This document shows, one piece after another, positions 2,793 to 36,138 of a stretch of 39,270 nt of DNA. The first letter of the stretch is position 1, and every line of letters starts with the position of its first letter. A program made the translations under genes and the position numbers. The notes below the pieces were generated by a model that worked only from the letters and a program-made list of their open reading frames with translations, was not told the origin of the DNA and searched no databases. The DNA comes from Escherichia phage 285P, in the sequence record NC_015249.1; one strand, 5' to 3'.

Positions 2793-5444
2793 ATGACTAA
2801 CGTAATCAACGCACCAAAGAACGACTTCTCTGACATCGCTAACGCAATCATGCCATACAACATTCTGGCTGACCATTACGGCGCACAGCTTGCAGCTACG
2901 CAGTTACAGCTTGAGCACGAAGCGCACACTGAGGGTGAGAAGCGTTTTCTTAAGGCAATGGAACGTCAAATCAAAGCGGGTGAGTTCGGTGATAACGCAG
3001 TGGCTAAACCGCTCCTGTCATCTCTCGCACCGAAGTTTATCGAAGCGTGGAACACTTGGTTCACCGAGGTGGAAGCGAAGCGTGGCAAGCGTCCAGTAGC
3101 CTACAATCTGGTACAGAAGGTTGCACCTGAAGCGGCAGCTTTCATCACACTGAAGGTCACACTCGCTTGCTTGACGAAAGAAGAGTTCACCAACCTGCAA
3201 TCGGTCGCCACTAAGATTGGTCGCAGTATTGAGGATGAACTGCGTTTTGGTCGCATCCGTGACGAAGAAGCGAAGCACTTTAAGAACCACGTACAGGAGG
3301 CACTGAACAAGCGCGTTGGTATCGTCTACAAGAAAGCATTCATGCAAGCCGTAGAGGGCAAGATGCTTGATGCTGGTCAACTGCAAACCAAGTGGACTAC
3401 ATGGACACCTGAAGAATCAATTCACGTTGGTGTGCGCATGTTGGAACTGCTCATCGGGTCTACTGGTCTCGTTGAGTTACACCGCCCGTTCGCTGGTAAC
3501 GTTGAGAAGGATGGCGAGTACATCCAACTGACCGAACAATATGTAGACCTGCTGTCTAAACGTGCTGGTGCACTGGCTGCAATCGCTCCGATGTATCAGC
3601 CTTGCGTGGTCCCTCCGAAGCCTTGGACTTCTCCGGTTGGTGGTGGCTATTGGGCTGCTGGTCGCAAGCCTCTCTCTCTGGTTCGTACTGGTTCCAAGAA
3701 GGGACTTGAGCGTTACAACGATGTGTACATGCCTGAAGTTTACAAGGCCGTGAACATCGCACAGAATACTCCTTGGAAGATTAACAAGAAGGTTCTGGCA
3801 GTGGTCAACGAGATTGTGAACTGGAAGCATTGCCCGGTTGAAGATGTTCCTGCTCTGGAACGTGGTGAACTGCCTGTCAAACCTGAAGACATCGACACGA
3901 ACGAGGCATCTCTCAAAGCGTGGAAGAAAGCGGCCTCCGCAATCTACCGCAAAGAGAAGGCACGAGTGTCACGCCGCATGAGCATGGAGTTCATGTTAGG
4001 TCAGGCCAATAAGTTCGCACAGTTCAAAGCTATCTGGTTCCCAATGAACATGGACTGGCGCGGTCGTGTGTATGCTGTGCCGATGTTTAACCCGCAAGGC
4101 AACGACATGACCAAAGGCTTGCTGACGCTCGCTAAAGGTAAACCAATCGGTGTCGATGGGTACTACTGGCTGAAGATTCACGGTGCTAACACTGCTGGCG
4201 TGGACAAGGTGGACTTTGCAGAACGCATCAAGTTCATTGATGACAACCATGAGAACATCATGAGCGTAGCTGCTGACCCGATTGCTAACACTTGGTGGGC
4301 CGAGCAAGACTCTCCGTTCTGCTTCCTCGCGTTCTGCTTCGAGTATGCAGGTGTGCAACACCACGGGATGAACTACAACTGCTCTCTTCCGCTGGCGTTC
4401 GATGGTAGCTGCTCCGGTATTCAGCACTTCTCCGCGATGCTCCGTGATGAGATTGGTGGTCGTGCGGTTAACCTGCTGCCGAGCAAGGAAGTACAGGACA
4501 TCTACCGCATCGTTGCGGAACGTGTGAACGAAATACTGAACCAAGATGTTATCAACGGGACCGACAACGAAGTAGAGACCGTGACCAATAAGGACACCGG
4601 AGAAATCACTGAGAAGCTCAAGCTGGGAACTAAGGAACTGGCTGGTCAATGGTTAGCATACGGTGTTACTCGTAAGGTGACTAAGCGTTCCGTTATGACC
4701 TTGGCGTATGGTTCCAAAGAGTACGGCTTCCGTGACCAAGTGCTAGAGGATACCATTCAGCCAGCTATCGACGATGGCAAGGGCTTGATGTTCACTCAAC
4801 CGAACCAAGCGGCTGGCTACATGGCTAAACTGATTTGGAACGCGGTAACGGTGACAGTGGTCGCAGCGGTTGAAGCAATGAACTGGCTGAAGTCTGCGGC
4901 TAAACTTCTAGCTGCTGAAGTCAAGGACAAGAAGACCAAAGAGGTTCTCCGTAAGCGCTGTGCGGTACATTGGGTTACTCCTGATGGCTTCCCGGTCTGG
5001 CAGGAATACAAGAAGCCAGTACAGACCCGCTTGAACCTGATGTTCTTAGGCCAGATTCGTCTACAGCCTACCGTGAACACCAACAAGGATAGCGGGATTG
5101 ATGCTCGTAAACAGGAGTCAGGTATCGCACCTAACTTTGTTCACTCAATGGATGGTAGCCACCTGCGCATGACCGTGGTTCGCTCCAACGAGGTCTACGG
5201 TGTGGAATCGTTCGCACTGATTCACGACTCCTTTGGTACTATCCCTGCTGATGCTGGCAACCTGTTTAAAGCAGTGCGTGAAACGATGGTGAACACCTAT
5301 GAAGAGAACGATGTACTAGCAGACTTCTATGAGCAATTTGCTGACCAGTTGCACGAATCACAGCTTGACAAGATGCCTGAGATGCCAGCTAAAGGTTCTC
5401 TGGACCTGCAAGAAATCCTTAAGTCAGACTTTGCGTTTGCCTAA
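2793..5444 (+). CDS. 1: T7-type single-subunit DNA-dependent RNA polymerase
   Basis: 883 aa (same as T7 RNAP); long identical stretches to T7 gp1 as recalled (PMFQPCVVPPKPWT, DGSCSGIQHFSAMLRDE, HDSFGTIPADA, C-terminal FAFA). Confidence 0.97.
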   Translation: MTNVINAPKNDFSDIANAIMPYNILADHYGAQLAATQLQLEHEAHTEGEKRFLKAMERQIKAGEFGDNAVAKPLLSSLAPKFIEAWNTWFTEVEAKRGKRPVAYNLVQKVAPEAAAFITLKVTLACLTKEEFTNLQSVATKIGRSIEDELRFGRIRDEEAKHFKNHVQEALNKRVGIVYKKAFMQAVEGKMLDAGQLQTKWTTWTPEESIHVGVRMLELLIGSTGLVELHRPFAGNVEKDGEYIQLTEQYVDLLSKRAGALAAIAPMYQPCVVPPKPWTSPVGGGYWAAGRKPLSLVRTGSKKGLERYNDVYMPEVYKAVNIAQNTPWKINKKVLAVVNEIVNWKHCPVEDVPALERGELPVKPEDIDTNEASLKAWKKAASAIYRKEKARVSRRMSMEFMLGQANKFAQFKAIWFPMNMDWRGRVYAVPMFNPQGNDMTKGLLTLAKGKPIGVDGYYWLKIHGANTAGVDKVDFAERIKFIDDNHENIMSVAADPIANTWWAEQDSPFCFLAFCFEYAGVQHHGMNYNCSLPLAFDGSCSGIQHFSAMLRDEIGGRAVNLLPSKEVQDIYRIVAERVNEILNQDVINGTDNEVETVTNKDTGEITEKLKLGTKELAGQWLAYGVTRKVTKRSVMTLAYGSKEYGFRDQVLEDTIQPAIDDGKGLMFTQPNQAAGYMAKLIWNAVTVTVVAAVEAMNWLKSAAKLLAAEVKDKKTKEVLRKRCAVHWVTPDGFPVWQEYKKPVQTRLNLMFLGQIRLQPTVNTNKDSGIDARKQESGIAPNFVHSMDGSHLRMTVVRSNEVYGVESFALIHDSFGTIPADAGNLFKAVRETMVNTYEENDVLADFYEQFADQLHESQLDKMPEMPAKGSLDLQEILKSDFAFA

Positions 5445-5451
5445 CGGAATC

Positions 5452-5474
5452 TAATACGACTCACTATTGGGAGC
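5452..5474 (+). promoter_or_regulatory. T7-type promoter (phi1.1A-like) TAATACGACTCACTATTGGGAGC
   Basis: Seen: perfect -17..-2 match, T at -1; begins 8 nt after the RNAP stop. Confidence 0.8.
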
Positions 5475-5486
5475 CTTCGGGCTTCC

Positions 5487-5533
5487 TAAACTTTAAGATA
5501 CTTTAAGTTCTAACTTTAAGAGGAAACACAATC
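5487..5533. other. AT-rich segment with 3x CTTTAAG repeats; candidate primary replication origin region
   Basis: Seen: repeats at 5491, 5501, 5514. Inference from T7, where the primary origin is the AT-rich region just downstream of phi1.1A/B. Confidence 0.3.
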
Positions 5534-6091
5534 ATGTTTACTTTAATCACTTCAGTAGGCGCTCTCGTATCAACCATTCTTGCAGCAACATACTATAATC
5601 GTTCAAAGGTATTTCTCACTAAGCTAATCAAAGAAGAGAAGAACTCTCATGCACTCAAAGAGAGACTTGAAGATGGATGGCGAGATAAGCAGGAACTAGC
5701 TGGTCGAATCCGTACCTTAGAGTTCGAACAACAATATGACATGTCGAACCAACGAGAACTCATTGAGCGTCTACGCGCTGAGGCAGTGGAGTACCGCAAG
5801 GAACTTAAAGAGGCAAAGAGTACCATCCGTGAGTACACTCACAGTGACATCACGTCTATCAAGTTTACTGCTCACATCCCGGATGCTGGATGGAAGCGCA
5901 CTGAGTTCAAGCTAGGCATAGGGTCTTGTGGCAAAGAGGTTACGTGTTTACACTGGAAAGAACAGTCGGACCGCTATCTGCTGACACAGACGTGCACTGA
6001 TGGTGAGCGCAAAGAGTTCACCTATTATAAGAAAGACGTAGCTGGTCGCATTGAGATTGCACGTAAGGTCGCAGACAATACGACTCACTAA
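5534..6091 (+). CDS. hypothetical membrane-anchored coiled-coil protein (inserted between gene 1 and 1.1; possibly T3 gene 1.05-position)
   Basis: 185-aa ORF with AAGAGGA RBS; N-terminal TM-like helix (FTLITSVGALVSTILAATYY), charged heptad-like helical region, Cys-containing C-terminal domain. T7 has no gene here. Confidence 0.6.
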   Translation: MFTLITSVGALVSTILAATYYNRSKVFLTKLIKEEKNSHALKERLEDGWRDKQELAGRIRTLEFEQQYDMSNQRELIERLRAEAVEYRKELKEAKSTIREYTHSDITSIKFTAHIPDAGWKRTEFKLGIGSCGKEVTCLHWKEQSDRYLLTQTCTDGERKEFTYYKKDVAGRIEIARKVADNTTH

Positions 6092-6098
6092 TGGGAAA
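6076..6098 (+). promoter_or_regulatory. T7-type promoter (phi1.1B-like) CAATACGACTCACTAATGGGAAA
   Basis: Seen: overlaps the last codons of ORF 5534-6091; -2/-1 are AT. Confidence 0.7.
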
Positions 6099-6105
6099 CA
6101 CTGAA

Positions 6106-6149
6106 AGTTAAACTCAAGGTCATCTACATGGTGGCCTTCATGATTAACT
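6106..6149 (+). promoter_or_regulatory. conserved RNase III-type hairpin element, copy 1 (R1.1-like)
   Basis: Seen: AGTTAAACT-CAAGGTCATC-loop-GGTGGCCTT-CATGATTAACT; inner 9-bp stem, outer AGTTAA/TTAACT stem; near-identical copies at 6623 and 13599. Confidence 0.55.
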
Positions 6150-6179
6150 GTCATTAACTACACAGAAGGAAATAACATT

Positions 6180-6329
6180 ATGCGTACCAACTTTGAACCA
6201 ACCACTAAGCGCAACAACGTAATCAATGAACACGGTGCTGAATGGCAGGAACGTAAAGACCGCATGAAGAAACGCCACAAGACACAACGTGGCAACGCTG
6301 AGAAACGTAATTGGAAGGAGGCACTCTAA
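6180..6329 (+). CDS. 1.1: gene 1.1 small basic protein
   Basis: 49 aa (MRTNFEPTTKRNNVINEHGAEWQERKDRMKKRHKTQRGNAEKRNWKEAL); basic, resembles T7 gp1.1; stop overlaps the gene 1.2 ATG. Confidence 0.6.
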   Translation: MRTNFEPTTKRNNVINEHGAEWQERKDRMKKRHKTQRGNAEKRNWKEAL

Positions 6330-6601
6330 TGGGTCGCTTATACAGTGGTAACTTAATAGCATTCAAGGATGCCATCGCTAGACTTAAAGAAGACCACGAT
6401 GCAAATGTGGTCGTTGAGACTTATCGCTATGAGGACTTCGCACAGCGTCGGGTGGTAGCCGGAGAGACACTTCGAGTGACCTTGCGGAATGGCTTAATGC
6501 TGACCGCTAAGTGTTTCGAACAGTCAGACGAAGACGTTCGCTGTAATGCACAGACTGAATGGCTCCGTAAGGTTCACAGTGACCTGAAGCACTGGAAGTA
6601 A
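6329..6601 (+). CDS. 1.2: gene 1.2 protein (host dGTPase inhibitor homolog)
   Basis: 90 aa from MGRLYSGNLIAFK...; N- and C-terminal blocks (MGRLYSGNL, DEDV, HSDLKHWK) match T7 gp1.2 as recalled. Confidence 0.8.
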   Translation: MGRLYSGNLIAFKDAIARLKEDHDANVVVETYRYEDFAQRRVVAGETLRVTLRNGLMLTAKCFEQSDEDVRCNAQTEWLRKVHSDLKHWK

Positions 6602-6621
6602 TACGACTCACTATTGCGAAA
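6599..6621 (+). promoter_or_regulatory. T7-type promoter (phi1.3-like) TAATACGACTCACTATTGCGAAA
   Basis: Seen: overlaps the gene 1.2 stop; +2 is C (weaker initiation region). Confidence 0.65.
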
Positions 6622-6622
6622 G

Positions 6623-6666
6623 AGTTAAACTAAAGGTCATCTTAATGGTGGCCTTTGTGATTAACT
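6623..6666 (+). promoter_or_regulatory. conserved RNase III-type hairpin element, copy 2 (R1.3-like)
   Basis: Seen: AGTTAAACTAAAGGTCATCTTAATGGTGGCCTTTGTGATTAACT. Confidence 0.55.
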
Positions 6667-6702
6667 TTTGATTACTTAATAACCAACAATAGGAGTTCCA
6701 TC

Positions 6703-7734
6703 ATGGAAATCACATTCAAGACTAACCCTTTTAAAGCTGTATCCTACGTTGAGTCTGCCATTAAGAAAGCACTCGACAAAGCTGGCTACCTGATTGCTGA
6801 CACTAAGCATGATGGTGTGCGTGGTAACATCGTGGTTGATAATACGGCTGACTGCCTGTGGCTGTCCCGTGTCTCTAAGACCATCCCCGCGCTTGAGCAC
6901 CTTAATGGGTTCGACCAACGCTGGGCTAATGTTCTCAAAGATGACCGCTGGATTTTCCCTGATGGCTTCATGCTGGATGGTGAACTGATGGTCAAAGGCG
7001 TAGACTTCAACACAGGGTCTGGCCTACTGAGAACCAAGTGGCTCAAGAAGACAAACTGTGGATTTGATATTGGTGGAGTAGAGCCTCTCAAGGGGAGTAA
7101 AGTAGACTTCTGCTTAGACCCTAAGAAACTTAAGGTTGTCCTGTATGCCGCTATGCCGTATCACGATATGGTAGAAGGCAAAGAGTACGGCGTTATGTCC
7201 CTCCTGATGCAAGAGCATGTGCGTTCCCTCATTCCGGTTCTTAGCGAACACTTCCCGGAAATCACTTGGGAACTATCTGAGGCCAAAGAAGTCTACGATA
7301 TGGTAGAACTTCAGGAACTCTACGAGAAAGCCCGTGCCGATGGTCATGAAGGTCTGGTCGTCAAAGACCCGCTGGAAGTCTACAAGCGCGGGAAGAAGTC
7401 TGGCTGGTGGAAGATGAAGCCTGAGAATGAAGCTGATGGTGTCATCGTTGGACTCAATTGGGGTACTCCGGGTCTGGCTAATGAAGGTAAAGTGATTGGC
7501 TTTGAGGTTCTCTTGGAGTCCGGTCGTGTAGTCTCTGCCAACAACATTAGCCAAGCGTTGATGGATGAGTTTACTGCTGCCGTCAAACATGCTGAGTCTG
7601 TGGGTATGGGTATGCCTTACACTGGCTTCGCCTGTCAGGTTGCCTACATGGAGGAAACTCCTGATGGTTCTCTGCGTCACCCTTCGTTCGTTATGTTCCG
7701 TGGTACTGAAGATAACCCAACGGAGAAGATGTAA
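6703..7734 (+). CDS. 1.3: ATP-dependent DNA ligase
   Basis: 343 aa; KxDGxR adenylation motif (DTKHDGVRGN) and extensive identity to T7 ligase as recalled (GLVVKDP, KSGWWKMKPENEADG, EGKVIGFEVLLESGR, RHPSFVMFRGTEDNP). Confidence 0.95.
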   Translation: MEITFKTNPFKAVSYVESAIKKALDKAGYLIADTKHDGVRGNIVVDNTADCLWLSRVSKTIPALEHLNGFDQRWANVLKDDRWIFPDGFMLDGELMVKGVDFNTGSGLLRTKWLKKTNCGFDIGGVEPLKGSKVDFCLDPKKLKVVLYAAMPYHDMVEGKEYGVMSLLMQEHVRSLIPVLSEHFPEITWELSEAKEVYDMVELQELYEKARADGHEGLVVKDPLEVYKRGKKSGWWKMKPENEADGVIVGLNWGTPGLANEGKVIGFEVLLESGRVVSANNISQALMDEFTAAVKHAESVGMGMPYTGFACQVAYMEETPDGSLRHPSFVMFRGTEDNPTEKM

Positions 7735-7916
7735 TGATAATCTTTGACCAAGGCATTTGGAAGGTATGGCAACACCCACACTTACAGGTATTCCACATCC
7801 TGAAGTGGTCTGAGGGAGACGACCCAGCCTCTTATGGGCGCAAGTGGGATTACTTCACACAGAAAGAGTGTAGAAGCATATCCGAGGTAAAGGCATATCT
7901 TCACGCCAACATGTAG
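7734..7916 (+). CDS. hypothetical protein (gene 1.4/1.5 position)
   Basis: 60-aa ORF overlapping the ligase stop (TAATG); no recognised homolog. Confidence 0.4.
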   Translation: MIIFDQGIWKVWQHPHLQVFHILKWSEGDDPASYGRKWDYFTQKECRSISEVKAYLHANM

Positions 7917-7923
7917 TAACACT

Positions 7924-7958
7924 GGTCAGACTTTCGGGTCTGGCCTTTTCGTGTTTCT
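7924..7958 (+). terminator. intrinsic terminator, candidate early terminator TE for host RNAP
   Basis: Seen: GGTCAGAC-TTTCGG-GTCTGGCC 8-bp stem followed by TTTTCGTGTTTCT; T7 TE lies just after the ligase region. Confidence 0.6.
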
Positions 7959-7978
7959 ATTAGACTCACTATGGAGGA
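7957..7978 (+). promoter_or_regulatory. degenerate T7-type promoter-like element (CTATTAGACTCACTATGGAGGA)
   Basis: Seen: GACTCACTAT core but 1-nt short before GG and altered -17..-12; near-duplicate of the element at 8065. Confidence 0.35.
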
Positions 7979-7986
7979 ACAACCTC

Positions 7987-8067
7987 ATGCTATTTCTAAT
8001 TGCTGCTGCTGTCTTTGCCACGTTTGCCTTCGTTATCATTGACGACAACTGCTGGCCTGATTGCTAA
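7987..8067 (+). CDS. tiny hydrophobic peptide (26 aa, MLFLIAAAVFATFAFVIIDDNCWPDC)
   Basis: ATG 9 nt after a GGAGG; too short for the ORF track; hydrophobic. Confidence 0.25.
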   Translation: MLFLIAAAVFATFAFVIIDDNCWPDC

Positions 8068-8087
8068 TACGACTCACCTATGGAGGA
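8065..8087 (+). promoter_or_regulatory. T7-type promoter variant with 1-nt insertion (TAATACGACTCACCTATGGAGGA)
   Basis: Seen: perfect -17..-5 then CTATGG; GGAGG doubles as the RBS for the 8095 ATG. Confidence 0.45.
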
Positions 8088-8094
8088 AACACTT

Positions 8095-8358
8095 ATGTTA
8101 CGACTACACTTCAACAAATCAAACGGTATCTTTTCGGCTCGTGGTTCCGACCGCTCGACGGTTCTTGCCTCTGAGAAACATGCAGTCATTCCTAAAGTGC
8201 TTGGCTCGACCATTGAGTTAGCACCTCGTGTTCACGCTGTAATCACCACTGGCTTATATAAAGAAGCGACCACTGGCTCCCGGCCTTTCATTCCGGTTCT
8301 TGTCACCCGTTTCCCTAAAGTCCGTCTGGTCATTGCGCGTATCAAGGAGGTGTTCTAA
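8095..8358 (+). CDS. gene 1.6-like hypothetical protein
   Basis: 87 aa from the second Met of ORF 8080-8358 (the first Met lies inside the promoter); position after the ligase block matches T7 gene 1.6. Confidence 0.55.
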   Translation: MLRLHFNKSNGIFSARGSDRSTVLASEKHAVIPKVLGSTIELAPRVHAVITTGLYKEATTGSRPFIPVLVTRFPKVRLVIARIKEVF

Positions 8359-8669
8359 TGGTCTGTATGGCATGTTTAGAGAGTGATGACCGCTACCCAC
8401 ATACCTGTGAACCTGTAGCTAAACCACAAGATATAGAGGGTGTTCGGACTCCTAGCCACTATATGTTGTTTGACGACATTGAGGCTATCGAAGTGATTGC
8501 CCGGTCGATGACCCGTGAACAGTTCAAGGGGTACTGCTTAGGGAACATCCTTAAGTATCGCCTACGTGCTGGTAAGAAATCTGAACTAGCATTCTTAGAG
8601 AAGGACATGGCGAAAGCTGGGTTCTATGGTGAACTGTACGAGAAACACAAAGGTAAGTGCTATGCTTAA
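8358..8669 (+). CDS. 1.7: gene 1.7-like protein (short form of T7 nucleotide kinase gp1.7)
   Basis: 103 aa; CxxC...YPHTC and C-terminal SHYMLFDDIEAIEVIARSMT..FKGYC.GNILKYRLRAGKKSELA.LEKD match T7 gp1.7 as recalled, but ~90 internal residues of the T7 protein are absent. Confidence 0.7.
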   Translation: MVCMACLESDDRYPHTCEPVAKPQDIEGVRTPSHYMLFDDIEAIEVIARSMTREQFKGYCLGNILKYRLRAGKKSELAFLEKDMAKAGFYGELYEKHKGKCYA

Positions 8670-35694: not shown

Positions 35695-36138
35695 ATGCTC
35701 AAGAATTTAAAGAGCTACGCCATCGCTGCGGCTTTTGTCTTGGGGATGACCCTTGCGTACAACCACGGCTATGACAAGGCTAACACTAAATGGGAACAGG
35801 AGGTGCACAATGAGTACGTCAAGCAAACTGAGGCGACTGCGAATAAACAGGCTGCTATCAACGAAATCTCACGACAATACCAAGAAGACCTTGCGGCGCT
35901 GGAAGGCAGCACTGATAGGGTCATTAATGATTTGCGTAACGATGGTAAGCGCTTGCGCGTCAAACTATCAGCCACCTCACGAGAACTCCAAGCTAACGGT
36001 GGATGCCTCGCTGATGGTCGAGCCGAACTTGACGAAGAGTTTAGTAAGCGTCTTATCGGAGTAACTCAAAGAGGGGATGCGTGGATTAAGGCGCTCCAAA
36101 ATACAATAACTGAAATGCAATCTAAGAAGGAGAAATAA
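35695..36138 (+). CDS. 18.5: Rz-like i-spanin
   Basis: 147 aa; N-terminal TM then coiled-coil; contains embedded +1 lipoprotein ORF. Confidence 0.9.
   Translation: MLKNLKSYAIAAAFVLGMTLAYNHGYDKANTKWEQEVHNEYVKQTEATANKQAAINEISRQYQEDLAALEGSTDRVINDLRNDGKRLRVKLSATSRELQANGGCLADGRAELDEEFSKRLIGVTQRGDAWIKALQNTITEMQSKKEK
35810..36064 (+). CDS. 18.7: Rz1-like o-spanin (lipoprotein), embedded in Rz in +1 frame
   Basis: 84 aa from Met preceded by GGAGG; lipobox-like MVSAC; C-terminal SLMVEPNLT matches T7 gp18.7. Confidence 0.8.
   Translation: MSTSSKLRRLRINRLLSTKSHDNTKKTLRRWKAALIGSLMICVTMVSACASNYQPPHENSKLTVDASLMVEPNLTKSLVSVLSE

Follow-up and report, generated by a model that had tools for sequence, protein, structure and literature searches.

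Gene 1.05 of Escherichia phage 285P joins a conserved T3 1.05 domain to an exchangeable N-terminal module with a predicted membrane anchor

The open reading frame that lies between the RNA polymerase gene (gene 1) and gene 1.1 in Escherichia phage 285P, a BA14-like Berlinvirus, is gene 1.05, an accessory gene that genuinely encodes a protein. The gene had already been cataloged: it belongs to a Pfam family, has been annotated since 2008, and has no assigned function. Our best explanation of its product, to which we give a probability of about 0.5, is that an anchored stalk holds a conserved partner-binding domain in the cytoplasm early in infection and that the protein is dispensable on some hosts. 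To the existing record, our analysis of the complete 39,270-nucleotide sequence (NC_015249.1; referred to here as the window) adds a predicted cytoplasmic topology, an N-terminal half that behaves as a cassette, the breadth of a family that has no solved relatives, a clean deletion of the gene in phage Berlin, and a lead toward DNA ligase.

Gene 1.05 occupies positions 5534 to 6091 on the plus strand, starts with ATG, and encodes a protein of 185 amino acids (21.6 kDa, pI 8.9), with a ribosome-binding site (AAGAGG, 5518 to 5523) ~10 nt before the start codon. An earlier reading made from the letters of the DNA (the sequence-only reading) had described a 185-codon frame with a good ribosome-binding site in the slot between gene 1 and gene 1.1, flanked by two promoters ~620 bp apart in place of the tight T7 spacing, and all of this was correct; the two promoters are ~624 bp apart in 285P, compared with 75 bp between phi1.1A and phi1.1B in T7, where the gap between gene 1 and gene 1.1 is 184 bp. 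The upstream promoter for the phage RNA polymerase, phi1.05 (TAATACGACTCACTATTGGGAGC; 5452 to 5474, plus strand), was recognized by its match to the T7 consensus (2 mismatches, with 0 chance matches expected) and by the annotation of BA14 and Kvp1, and transcription from it would start at position 5469. The resulting leader (5469 to 5533, plus strand), which we characterized by alignment with nine Berlinviruses, T3, and T7, by composition, and by the T3 rep_origin annotation, is 34% GC and contains a 5′ hairpin (5469 to 5486; fold z = −3.3) and three ACTTTAAG boxes (5490 to 5497, 5500 to 5507, and 5513 to 5520). By alignment and annotation, it corresponds both to the T3 stretch annotated as a replication origin and to the T7 phi1.1B leader, which lies within the primary-origin region of T7.

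The downstream promoter, phi1.1 (CAATACGACTCACTAATGGGAAA; 6076 to 6098, plus strand), was identified from its sequence and from the homologous site annotated in BA14 and Kvp1. It overlaps the final five codons and the stop codon of gene 1.05, and the residues encoded by the overlap (181 to 185) have an AlphaFold pLDDT of <50. Beyond it lies an irregular hairpin (6102 to 6153, plus strand) homologous to the T7 phi1.1A leader (33/40 identities), which is also indicated by folding and by a stem-loop annotated at the same place in T3; the T7 leader after phi1.1A is the RNase III site R1.1. The 1.05 cassette, which is missing from phage Berlin, ends at gene 1.1 (6180 to 6329, plus strand; Pfam PF08200). 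No Rfam family was matched within positions 5300 to 6800, and no paralogue of gene 1.05 was found elsewhere in the window or in T7 positions 3000 to 8500.

This arrangement suggests that gene 1.05 is transcribed from its own phage promoter, phi1.05. A TE-like terminator was found only at 7924 to 7945, after the ligase gene, and because gene 1.05 lies upstream of this early terminator, the host polymerase, reading this region as it does in T7, probably also transcribes it together with gene 1. Since the R1.1-like hairpin is placed after gene 1.05 rather than before it, genes 1 and 1.05 would be carried on one processed early mRNA.

The identity of the gene rests on several lines of evidence. 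The Pfam profile PF25755 ("Enterobacteria phage T3 gene 1.05 protein") scores 102.5 bits (E = 1.2e-29) over residues 106 to 176, compared with a gathering score of 27 bits, and the match covers profile positions 2 to 72 of 73; the whole protein matches PHROG 8103 and PHROG 6440, both of unknown function. The family motif F-x-L-G-x-G-x-C-G ... Q ... F-x-Y ... G-R is present, and the residues that are invariant across 62 diverse members (G128, C132, G133, Q152, F162, G171, and R172) are all found in 285P. The DNA of the region is 98.9% identical to that of Enterobacter phage PZJ0206, whose protein is 100% identical to that of 285P, and 93 to 96% identical to that of PhiV-1, BA14, and other Berlinviruses. 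In BA14 (EU734171), gene 1.05 is annotated as "fusion protein with gene 1.05" between phi1.05 and phi1.1, and the annotation of Kvp1 agrees in placing gene 1.05 between these promoters. The 285P gene lies in this same slot of the Studiervirinae, with phi1.05 and phi1.1 on either side. The sequence-only reading had foreseen that a homologue of T3 1.05 would be conserved and uncharacterized, and this proved to be the right branch; its alternative, a new cargo gene, fails because the gene is known and named in BA14, Kvp1, and T3, its product is identical to that of PZJ0206, and the PF25755 domain was detected in 557 phage records. In the literature searched, including a screen of accessory genes for counter-defense, we found no study of the function of gp1.05 or PF25755. 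Gene 1.05 had already been singled out in the Kvp1 genome paper as a place where the sequences are dissimilar (PMC2579914).

We compared gene 1.05 of 285P with that of nine Berlinviruses. In the C-terminal domain, dN/dS was 0 to 0.13 with a dS of 0.15 to 1.3 across the nine relatives, and in the N-terminal half, where only phages with the same allele were compared, it was 0.10 to 0.28. Gene 1.05 is under purifying selection and is truly coding. The combination of high dS and low dN in the C-terminal half means that the protein is conserved rather than the DNA, and the values for both halves imply that the frame is not open merely as a result of its overlap with a promoter at the 3′ end or with the origin-like region in the 5′ leader. 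The sequence-only reading had named the reading frame in close relatives as a check on whether the gene is coding, and that check came out in its favor, with dN/dS well below 1 in both halves.

The protein has three parts. The first 22 residues contain no charged residue and reach a Kyte-Doolittle 19-residue mean of 1.79; on hydropathy and the placement of Lys and Arg, residues 2 to 22 (5537 to 5599, plus strand) are predicted to form an uncharged hydrophobic helix that anchors the protein in the membrane with its N terminus outside. This anchor is moderately hydrophobic and includes Ser, Thr, and Gly; the equivalent means are 2.82 in KP32i195 and 2.47 in SH1. Residues 23 to 104 are 44% charged, and within them, reading from the sequence, hydrophobic residues recur at a regular 3-4 spacing from 70 to 101. 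AlphaFold, supplied with 26 homologues, modeled residues 2 to 102 as one helix, with a pLDDT of ~90 or higher over most of it. The full-length model (mean pLDDT of 88) has six beta strands in residues 106 to 177, and the same strands were obtained when the C-terminal domain was modeled alone (pLDDT of 84). Pfam, AlphaFold, and dN/dS support a conserved "T3 1.05" domain at residues 105 to 177 (5846 to 6064, plus strand), six stranded, all beta, and predicted to be cytoplasmic. By hydropathy, charge, and AlphaFold model, the plan given in the sequence-only reading, in which a transmembrane-like helix at the N terminus leads into a charged coiled coil and then a C-terminal domain, is correct.

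The same reading had drawn attention to three cysteines in the C-terminal domain. They are present (C132, C138, and C154), but C132 is the only invariant cysteine family-wide, and because C138 and C154 vary, the three do not constitute a conserved motif; with a single conserved cysteine, we rejected a Cys-rich, zinc, or disulfide motif. A Walker-A interpretation of the sequence G-x-x-x-x-G-K was rejected because the KP32 and SH1 lineages have Leu in place of the Lys and because these residues lie in a beta-hairpin of an all-beta domain. We also rejected an origin from PKD/Big (Ig-like) domains: a single-domain phmmer search had matched repeats in three large surface proteins, but these repeats score ≤3.9 bits each against the family profile, and no Ig-like fold appears among the structure matches listed, none of which is significant. 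Neither the single sequence nor a 62-member profile found a sequence relative in the PDB, and the best Foldseek match of the domain model to the PDB had an E value of 0.13. The best structural matches, all of weak similarity, were to small beta-barrels (Sm/Hfq, WYL, SspB, and ribosomal protein bL19), and a likeness of this kind would give nothing firm on the type of ligand. Among predicted viral structures, the significant matches were all to uncharacterized Autographiviridae proteins from enteric, Pseudomonas, Ralstonia, Aeromonas, and Delftia phages. The PADLOC models of anti-phage defense gave no match at E ≤ 1, and NCBIfam gave no useful match.

The orientation of the protein in the membrane is predicted from its charges. 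No Lys or Arg precedes the helix in 285P, and R23, K25, K30, and K33 stand behind it. The same bias is found in 83/83 anchor-bearing members, which have a mean of 3.0 Lys and Arg in the 15 residues after the helix, compared with 0.02 before it. By the positive-inside rule, from which the topology is drawn in its entirety, the N terminus would be outside and the C-terminal domain in the cytoplasm. A cytoplasmic domain fits both the single conserved cysteine and the existence of short members without an N-terminal hydrophobic segment, which was absent in all 47 screened representatives of ≤100 amino acids.

Sliding-window comparison revealed that the first part of the gene has a history different from that of its surroundings. 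Codons ~6 to 105, comprising most of the anchor and the charged coiled-coil stalk, form an allelic cassette (5550 to 5849, plus strand) defined by a drop in identity, with sharp breakpoints near 5550 and 5850. Its nucleotide identity to Carena, BP12A, LPST144, and PP74 is 46 to 72%, compared with 80 to 100% in the flanks, and at the protein level Carena, BP12A, JSS2, PP74, and LPST144 are 96 to 99% identical to 285P in RNA polymerase and 86 to 100% identical in the C-terminal domain but only 27 to 40% identical in the N-terminal half. In BA14, the pattern is reversed, such that the N-half DNA is 98 to 100% identical and part of the C-terminal half is 74 to 86% identical. For BA14, PhiV-1, and Kvp1, dS in the N-terminal half (0.03 to 0.09) is far below that in the flanks, which points to recent exchange of this half between phages. 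The 285P N-module was found in only 22 phage records, always in the same slot, and since this one allele occurs across five host genera (the hosts are E. coli, Kluyvera, Enterobacter, Salmonella, and Yersinia), it has no simple link to host genus. The product of a neighboring gene, gp1.2, is also allelic. Taken together, these comparisons indicate that the N-module is swapped between phages as a cassette and that the C-terminal domain is highly conserved.

The same division runs through the family. An exhaustive phmmer search yielded 129 cluster representatives, and a profile search yielded 198 proteins, with PF25755 the sole recorded Pfam domain in every match listed; no copies were found in plasmids or E. 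coli genomes. We sorted 240 domain-bearing representatives by the number of residues that precede the domain: fewer than 20 in 127, 20 to 59 in 30, and at least 60 in 83. The 127 with fewer than 20 are stand-alone proteins of ~75 to 100 amino acids. For the 83 with a long N-terminal extension, every pair of C-terminal domains is matched by BLAST, whereas only 8% of the pairs of N-modules are, and the N-modules fall into 35 clusters. Among the first 154 representatives, a hydrophobic helix is present at the N terminus of 83, another 17 are long and unanchored with a coiled coil only, and 47 are stand-alone proteins of ≤100 amino acids. The KP32-type and SH1 proteins repeat the 285P plan of transmembrane helix, coiled coil, and domain, with stronger anchors. 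That the C-terminal domains all align, the N-modules are diverse, and the cassette boundaries are sharp argues that function resides in the domain and that one tether can be exchanged for another.

Gene 1.05 follows the RNA polymerase gene in Teetrevirus, Berlinvirus, Przondovirus, and Kayfunavirus, precedes it in a Pijolavirus, lies upstream of the primase gene in an Ahphunavirus, and adjoins the DNA polymerase gene, just before it, in Scottvirus. Further contigs have it between PolA and the 5′-3′ exonuclease, in one of them as a stand-alone form two genes after a gp5.9-like gene, and it is found in 78-kb and 45-kb phage contigs that carry T5-type genes. Gene 1.05 never leaves the early or DNA-metabolism block but has no fixed neighbor.

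Neither T7 nor Berlin, a Yersinia phage and the type species of the genus, has gene 1.05. In Berlin, the ATG of gene 1.1 comes directly after the phi1.05 promoter with its hairpin, its ACTTTAAG boxes, and the ribosome-binding site. Similar stretches stand ahead of the two start codons in 285P (AAGAGGAAACACAATCATG and AGAAGGAAATAACATTATG), and because they are alike, recombination between them would delete exactly the 1.05 cassette. The sequence-only reading had the gene inserted between phi1.1A and phi1.1B, and the leaders contradict this. By homology, the leader of phi1.05 in 285P corresponds to that of T7 phi1.1B and the leader of phi1.1 to that of T7 phi1.1A, so that the units are permuted and not pushed apart. 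Given how widely the domain has spread, loss in the T7 and Berlin lineages is at least as likely as gain here.

The only experimental evidence that we found on the gene comes from a published evolution experiment. Of the T3 lines evolved after deletion of the ligase gene, line A acquired a deletion plus insertion (nt 5659 to 6041) covering phi1.05, gene 1.05, and phi1.1, and in line B gp1.05 gained the substitution F22S. The authors classed each of these changes as compensating for the missing ligase, and the line in which phi1.05, gene 1.05, and phi1.1 are deleted was viable (PMC2696425). F22 of T3 (the Phe of "SIKF") corresponds to F111 in 285P and is nearly invariant among close homologues. 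As a link to the gp1.05 protein, however, the result is ambiguous. Both changes lie inside the annotated T3 origin (in the numbering of the T3 segment compared here, rep_origin is at 1094 to 1235, codon 22 is at 1216 to 1218, and F22S is at 1217), and gene 1.05 is ~600 bp from the ligase deletion, so that linkage confounds the recombination test by which the changes were called compensatory. The viability of the T3 deletion line, together with the absence of the gene from Berlin and T7, shows that gene 1.05 is dispensable on at least some hosts.

In the explanation that we favor, the hydrophobic helix would anchor gp1.05 in the inner membrane with its N terminus outside, and the coiled coil would pair or bundle copies of the protein and hold the domain in the cytoplasm a few nanometers below the membrane. 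The conserved C-terminal domain would be the working part, binding one conserved cytoplasmic partner in the early DNA-metabolism phase, and the tether would set only its location and copy number. The partner would most likely come from the host, and gp1.05 would block or sequester it much as the small early proteins gp1.2, gp2, and gp5.9 act on their targets. The early position of the gene, its patchy presence, its stand-alone soluble relatives, and the T3 ligase link led us to suggest, tentatively and at somewhat less than even odds, that gp1.05 acts in DNA metabolism or host takeover by binding or sequestering. A phage protein or a nucleic acid would be an equally plausible ligand for the conserved domain.

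Other roles can be proposed for the same protein. Its domain might be a replication factor that binds the primary origin, an R-loop, or a replisome protein, with tethered forms fixing DNA to the membrane, or the 5′ DNA of the gene might itself be a part of the origin under selection. We consider this unlikely: the gene keeps no constant position relative to the origin or the polymerase (it lies before RNA polymerase in one case and is also carried by a 78-kb phage), the domain has only a weak basic charge (net +2), replication proceeds without it in T7 and Berlin, and, as described above, selection in the C-terminal half acts on protein rather than DNA. A little less likely still is superinfection exclusion or control of DNA entry, in which anchored gp1.05 would block a second T7-like genome and the N-module would set which competitors are excluded. 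A membrane anchor and early expression would suit such a role, as would an N-module that is allelic within one genus, a pattern known for specificity determinants, and T3 and T7 are said to exclude one another (PMC3276506). Superinfection-exclusion proteins as a class share no single sequence family. The conserved part, however, is the predicted cytoplasmic domain, and at most a few residues of the N terminus would be exposed outside. Moreover, about half of the family consists of soluble stand-alone proteins and T3 gp1.05 itself lacks an anchor, which argues that the core activity is independent of the membrane.

In a more specific form of the favored explanation, the target that gp1.05 inhibits or sequesters would be the NAD-dependent DNA ligase of the host, or else a different host nick-repair enzyme, and the ATP-dependent ligase encoded by the phage in the same operon would be the bypass. 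Genes 1.05 and 1.3 do lie in one transcription unit, and 5/7 distant 1.05-positive phages or contigs have a ligase, although a gene found in most Autographiviridae gives such a co-occurrence test little power. One 1.05-positive contig type has no ligase within ±6 to 10 kb and a 1.05-positive locus of 12.5 kb also has none (both are partial contigs), and the T3 result carries the origin and linkage caveats. We regard this idea as doubtful, at odds of roughly one in ten, and would put no higher the broader version in which the 1.05 domain inhibits or sequesters a host repair or replication enzyme, with LigA the most concrete candidate, and the BA14- and KP32-type cassettes pull that target to the membrane. 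An effector of cell division or the envelope, for example, an FtsZ-directed block that replaces T7 gp0.4, is very improbable. Its appeal lies in a layout like that of ZipA and EzrA and in an early region that shows a T3 SAMase-like open reading frame and a 65-amino-acid membrane open reading frame and in which, by eye, we recognized no counterpart of T7 gene 0.4; against it, no ZipA or EzrA family occurs among the Pfam matches at E ≤ 1, many members are soluble and unanchored, and T3 gp1.05 has no stalk. Lowest of all, with next to no probability, we place a second spanin or lysis protein and a nonfunctional frame held open by overlapping DNA signals. The former is prompted by a superficial transmembrane and coiled-coil likeness to i-spanins that the sequence-only reading had also seen, and the latter by the promoter at the 3′ end and the origin-like region in the 5′ leader. 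The charge bias predicts the topology opposite to that of an i-spanin, gp1.05 has no PF03245 match at E ≤ 1, the overlapping open reading frames contain no lipobox, no lipoprotein frame is embedded in the gene, and 285P already has a complete spanin pair at 35695 to 36138 (gp18.5, which matches PF03245, with an embedded lipoprotein frame at 35753 to 36064). A dN/dS of 0 to 0.28 with substantial dS rules out a noncoding frame. We therefore excluded both.

Gene 1.05 is among the last genes of the T3/T7-type early region without a function, and its domain occurs in more than 550 sequenced phages, including most of the KP32-type Klebsiella phages considered for therapy. It is now easier to test, with a small working domain that is predicted to be cytoplasmic, an exchangeable stalk, natural nulls at hand in Berlin and T7, and one evolution experiment that ties the locus to ligase dependence. 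If it is true that the domain blocks a host DNA-repair enzyme or defense protein, it would be a new type of inhibitor.

Among known systems, the closest is the T3 1.05 family itself (BA14, Kvp1, phiSG-JL2 Gp1.05, and the KP32 "fusion protein"), with which 285P shares the conserved domain, the slot, and the flanking promoter pair, the downstream promoter overlapping the stop codon. T3 gp1.05 (90 amino acids, in the same slot) has nothing beyond the domain, with CTTTAAG leader-type repeats encoding its first ~15 residues, whereas 285P has the long "fusion" version, whose N-module is of the BA14 type. The i-spanins (lambda Rz and T7 gp18.5; PF03245) are of similar size and likewise pass from a transmembrane helix at the N terminus into a charged coiled coil, but they face the periplasm and carry Lys or Arg before the helix (285P gp18.5 begins MLKNLK), whereas gp1.05 carries them after it, is encoded in the early region rather than among the lysis genes, and includes a globular beta domain that i-spanins lack. 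ZipA and EzrA, which consist of an N-out anchor, a charged stalk, and a cytoplasmic head, share with the predicted layout of gp1.05 an uncharged anchor from residue ~2, a charged stalk, and a cytoplasmic head; they are not homologous to it and their heads have a different fold, so the likeness is in layout alone. The dGTPase inhibitor gp1.2, the RNA polymerase inhibitor gp2, and the RecBCD inhibitor gp5.9 are, like gp1.05, products of small accessory genes of the early or DNA-metabolism block that vary between lineages. They have no sequence or fold relation to gp1.05 and are soluble proteins with known targets, whereas gp1.05 of 285P has a predicted tether.

Yersinia phage Berlin, which is the type species of the genus to which this phage belongs, is a natural null for gene 1.05 (window 5534-6091, + strand): the gene is precisely absent from its locus (L021 632-746), and the ATG of gene 1.1 is joined to the phi1.05 leader and ribosome-binding site. 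In the window, the stretches running from ribosome-binding site to ATG are similar in genes 1.05 and 1.1, and similarity of this kind could have mediated a deletion of the Berlin type. A separate observation concerns P0032, a 110-aa family homologue from a metagenome, which is a natural in-frame deletion variant; a related anchor survives in it along with some of the stalk, but the conserved domain is almost wholly gone, only the last ~20 residues remaining.

Exactly at the inferred phi1.05 transcript start lies a 5' hairpin, GGGAGCC-UUCG-GGCUUCC (window 5469-5486), and a hairpin at this position is also found in BA14, PP74, T3, and T7, with differing stem sequences. Three copies of the ACTTTAAG box are present in the window leader (window 5490-5520), and the Berlin leader carries five (L021 680-745). 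At the T3 locus (L002 1115-1200), the CTTTAAG boxes of the leader run on into the 1.05 ORF itself, such that codons 7 to 14 (FFKNIFKL) read TTC TTT AAG AAC ATC TTT AAG TTA. Because these boxes fall within 1.05 codons, the short N-terminus of the T3 protein looks, from its coding sequence, as if repeats of the leader or origin were being translated, and T3 may carry a version of 1.05 derived by deletion from a longer gene.

The 1.05 domain also occurs on its own in two contigs that are not T7-like, where a stand-alone gene lies between those for PolA and a 5'-3' exonuclease (L027 9039-10255; L018 6001-6258). On L027, it sits two genes after a T7 gp5.9-like gene of the RecBCD-inhibitor family. 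No ligase was found within ±6 to 10 kb of the 1.05-domain gene on either contig.

Several other small genes of the window were noted. The ORF at 824-1318 resembles the T3 SAM hydrolase, gp0.3. It is followed by a 65-aa ORF (1320-1517) that begins with an uncharged, hydrophobic N-terminal helix and continues with RDFKRG, the same charge pattern as that of gp1.05; this ORF may encode another small membrane protein of the early region. Gene 1.2 (dGTPase inhibitor, 6329-6601), a neighbor of the 1.05 region, is likewise allelic, being only 81 to 83% identical in phages with 98 to 99% identical RNA polymerases and 38 to 42% identical in PP74 and LPST144. A 60-aa ORF (7734-7916), for which no Pfam match was found, overlaps the ligase stop codon; downstream of it come a TE-like terminator hairpin and its T-run (7924-7945). 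The canonical spanin pair lies at 35695-36138, encoding an Rz-family i-spanin (PF03245), and at 35753-36064, an ORF embedded in the i-spanin gene in the +1 frame with a lipobox-like MVSAC.

At its 3' end, gene 1.05 shares sequence with phi1.1 (6076-6098), which overlaps the stop codon and the last five codons (D-N-T-T-H). The C-terminal residues beneath the promoter are disordered in the structure model, and the terminal NTTH is retained in nearly all Berlinvirus homologues. Lying 3' of phi1.1 is an irregular hairpin (6102-6153) resembling R1.1, the T7 RNase III site, with which it was compared at about 2855-2895 of the T7 locus (L017). The promoter-leader units stand in opposite orders in the two phages: phi1.1A, R1.1, phi1.1B, and AT-rich leader in T7 but phi1.05, AT-rich leader, gene 1.05, phi1.1, and R1.1-like hairpin in the window.
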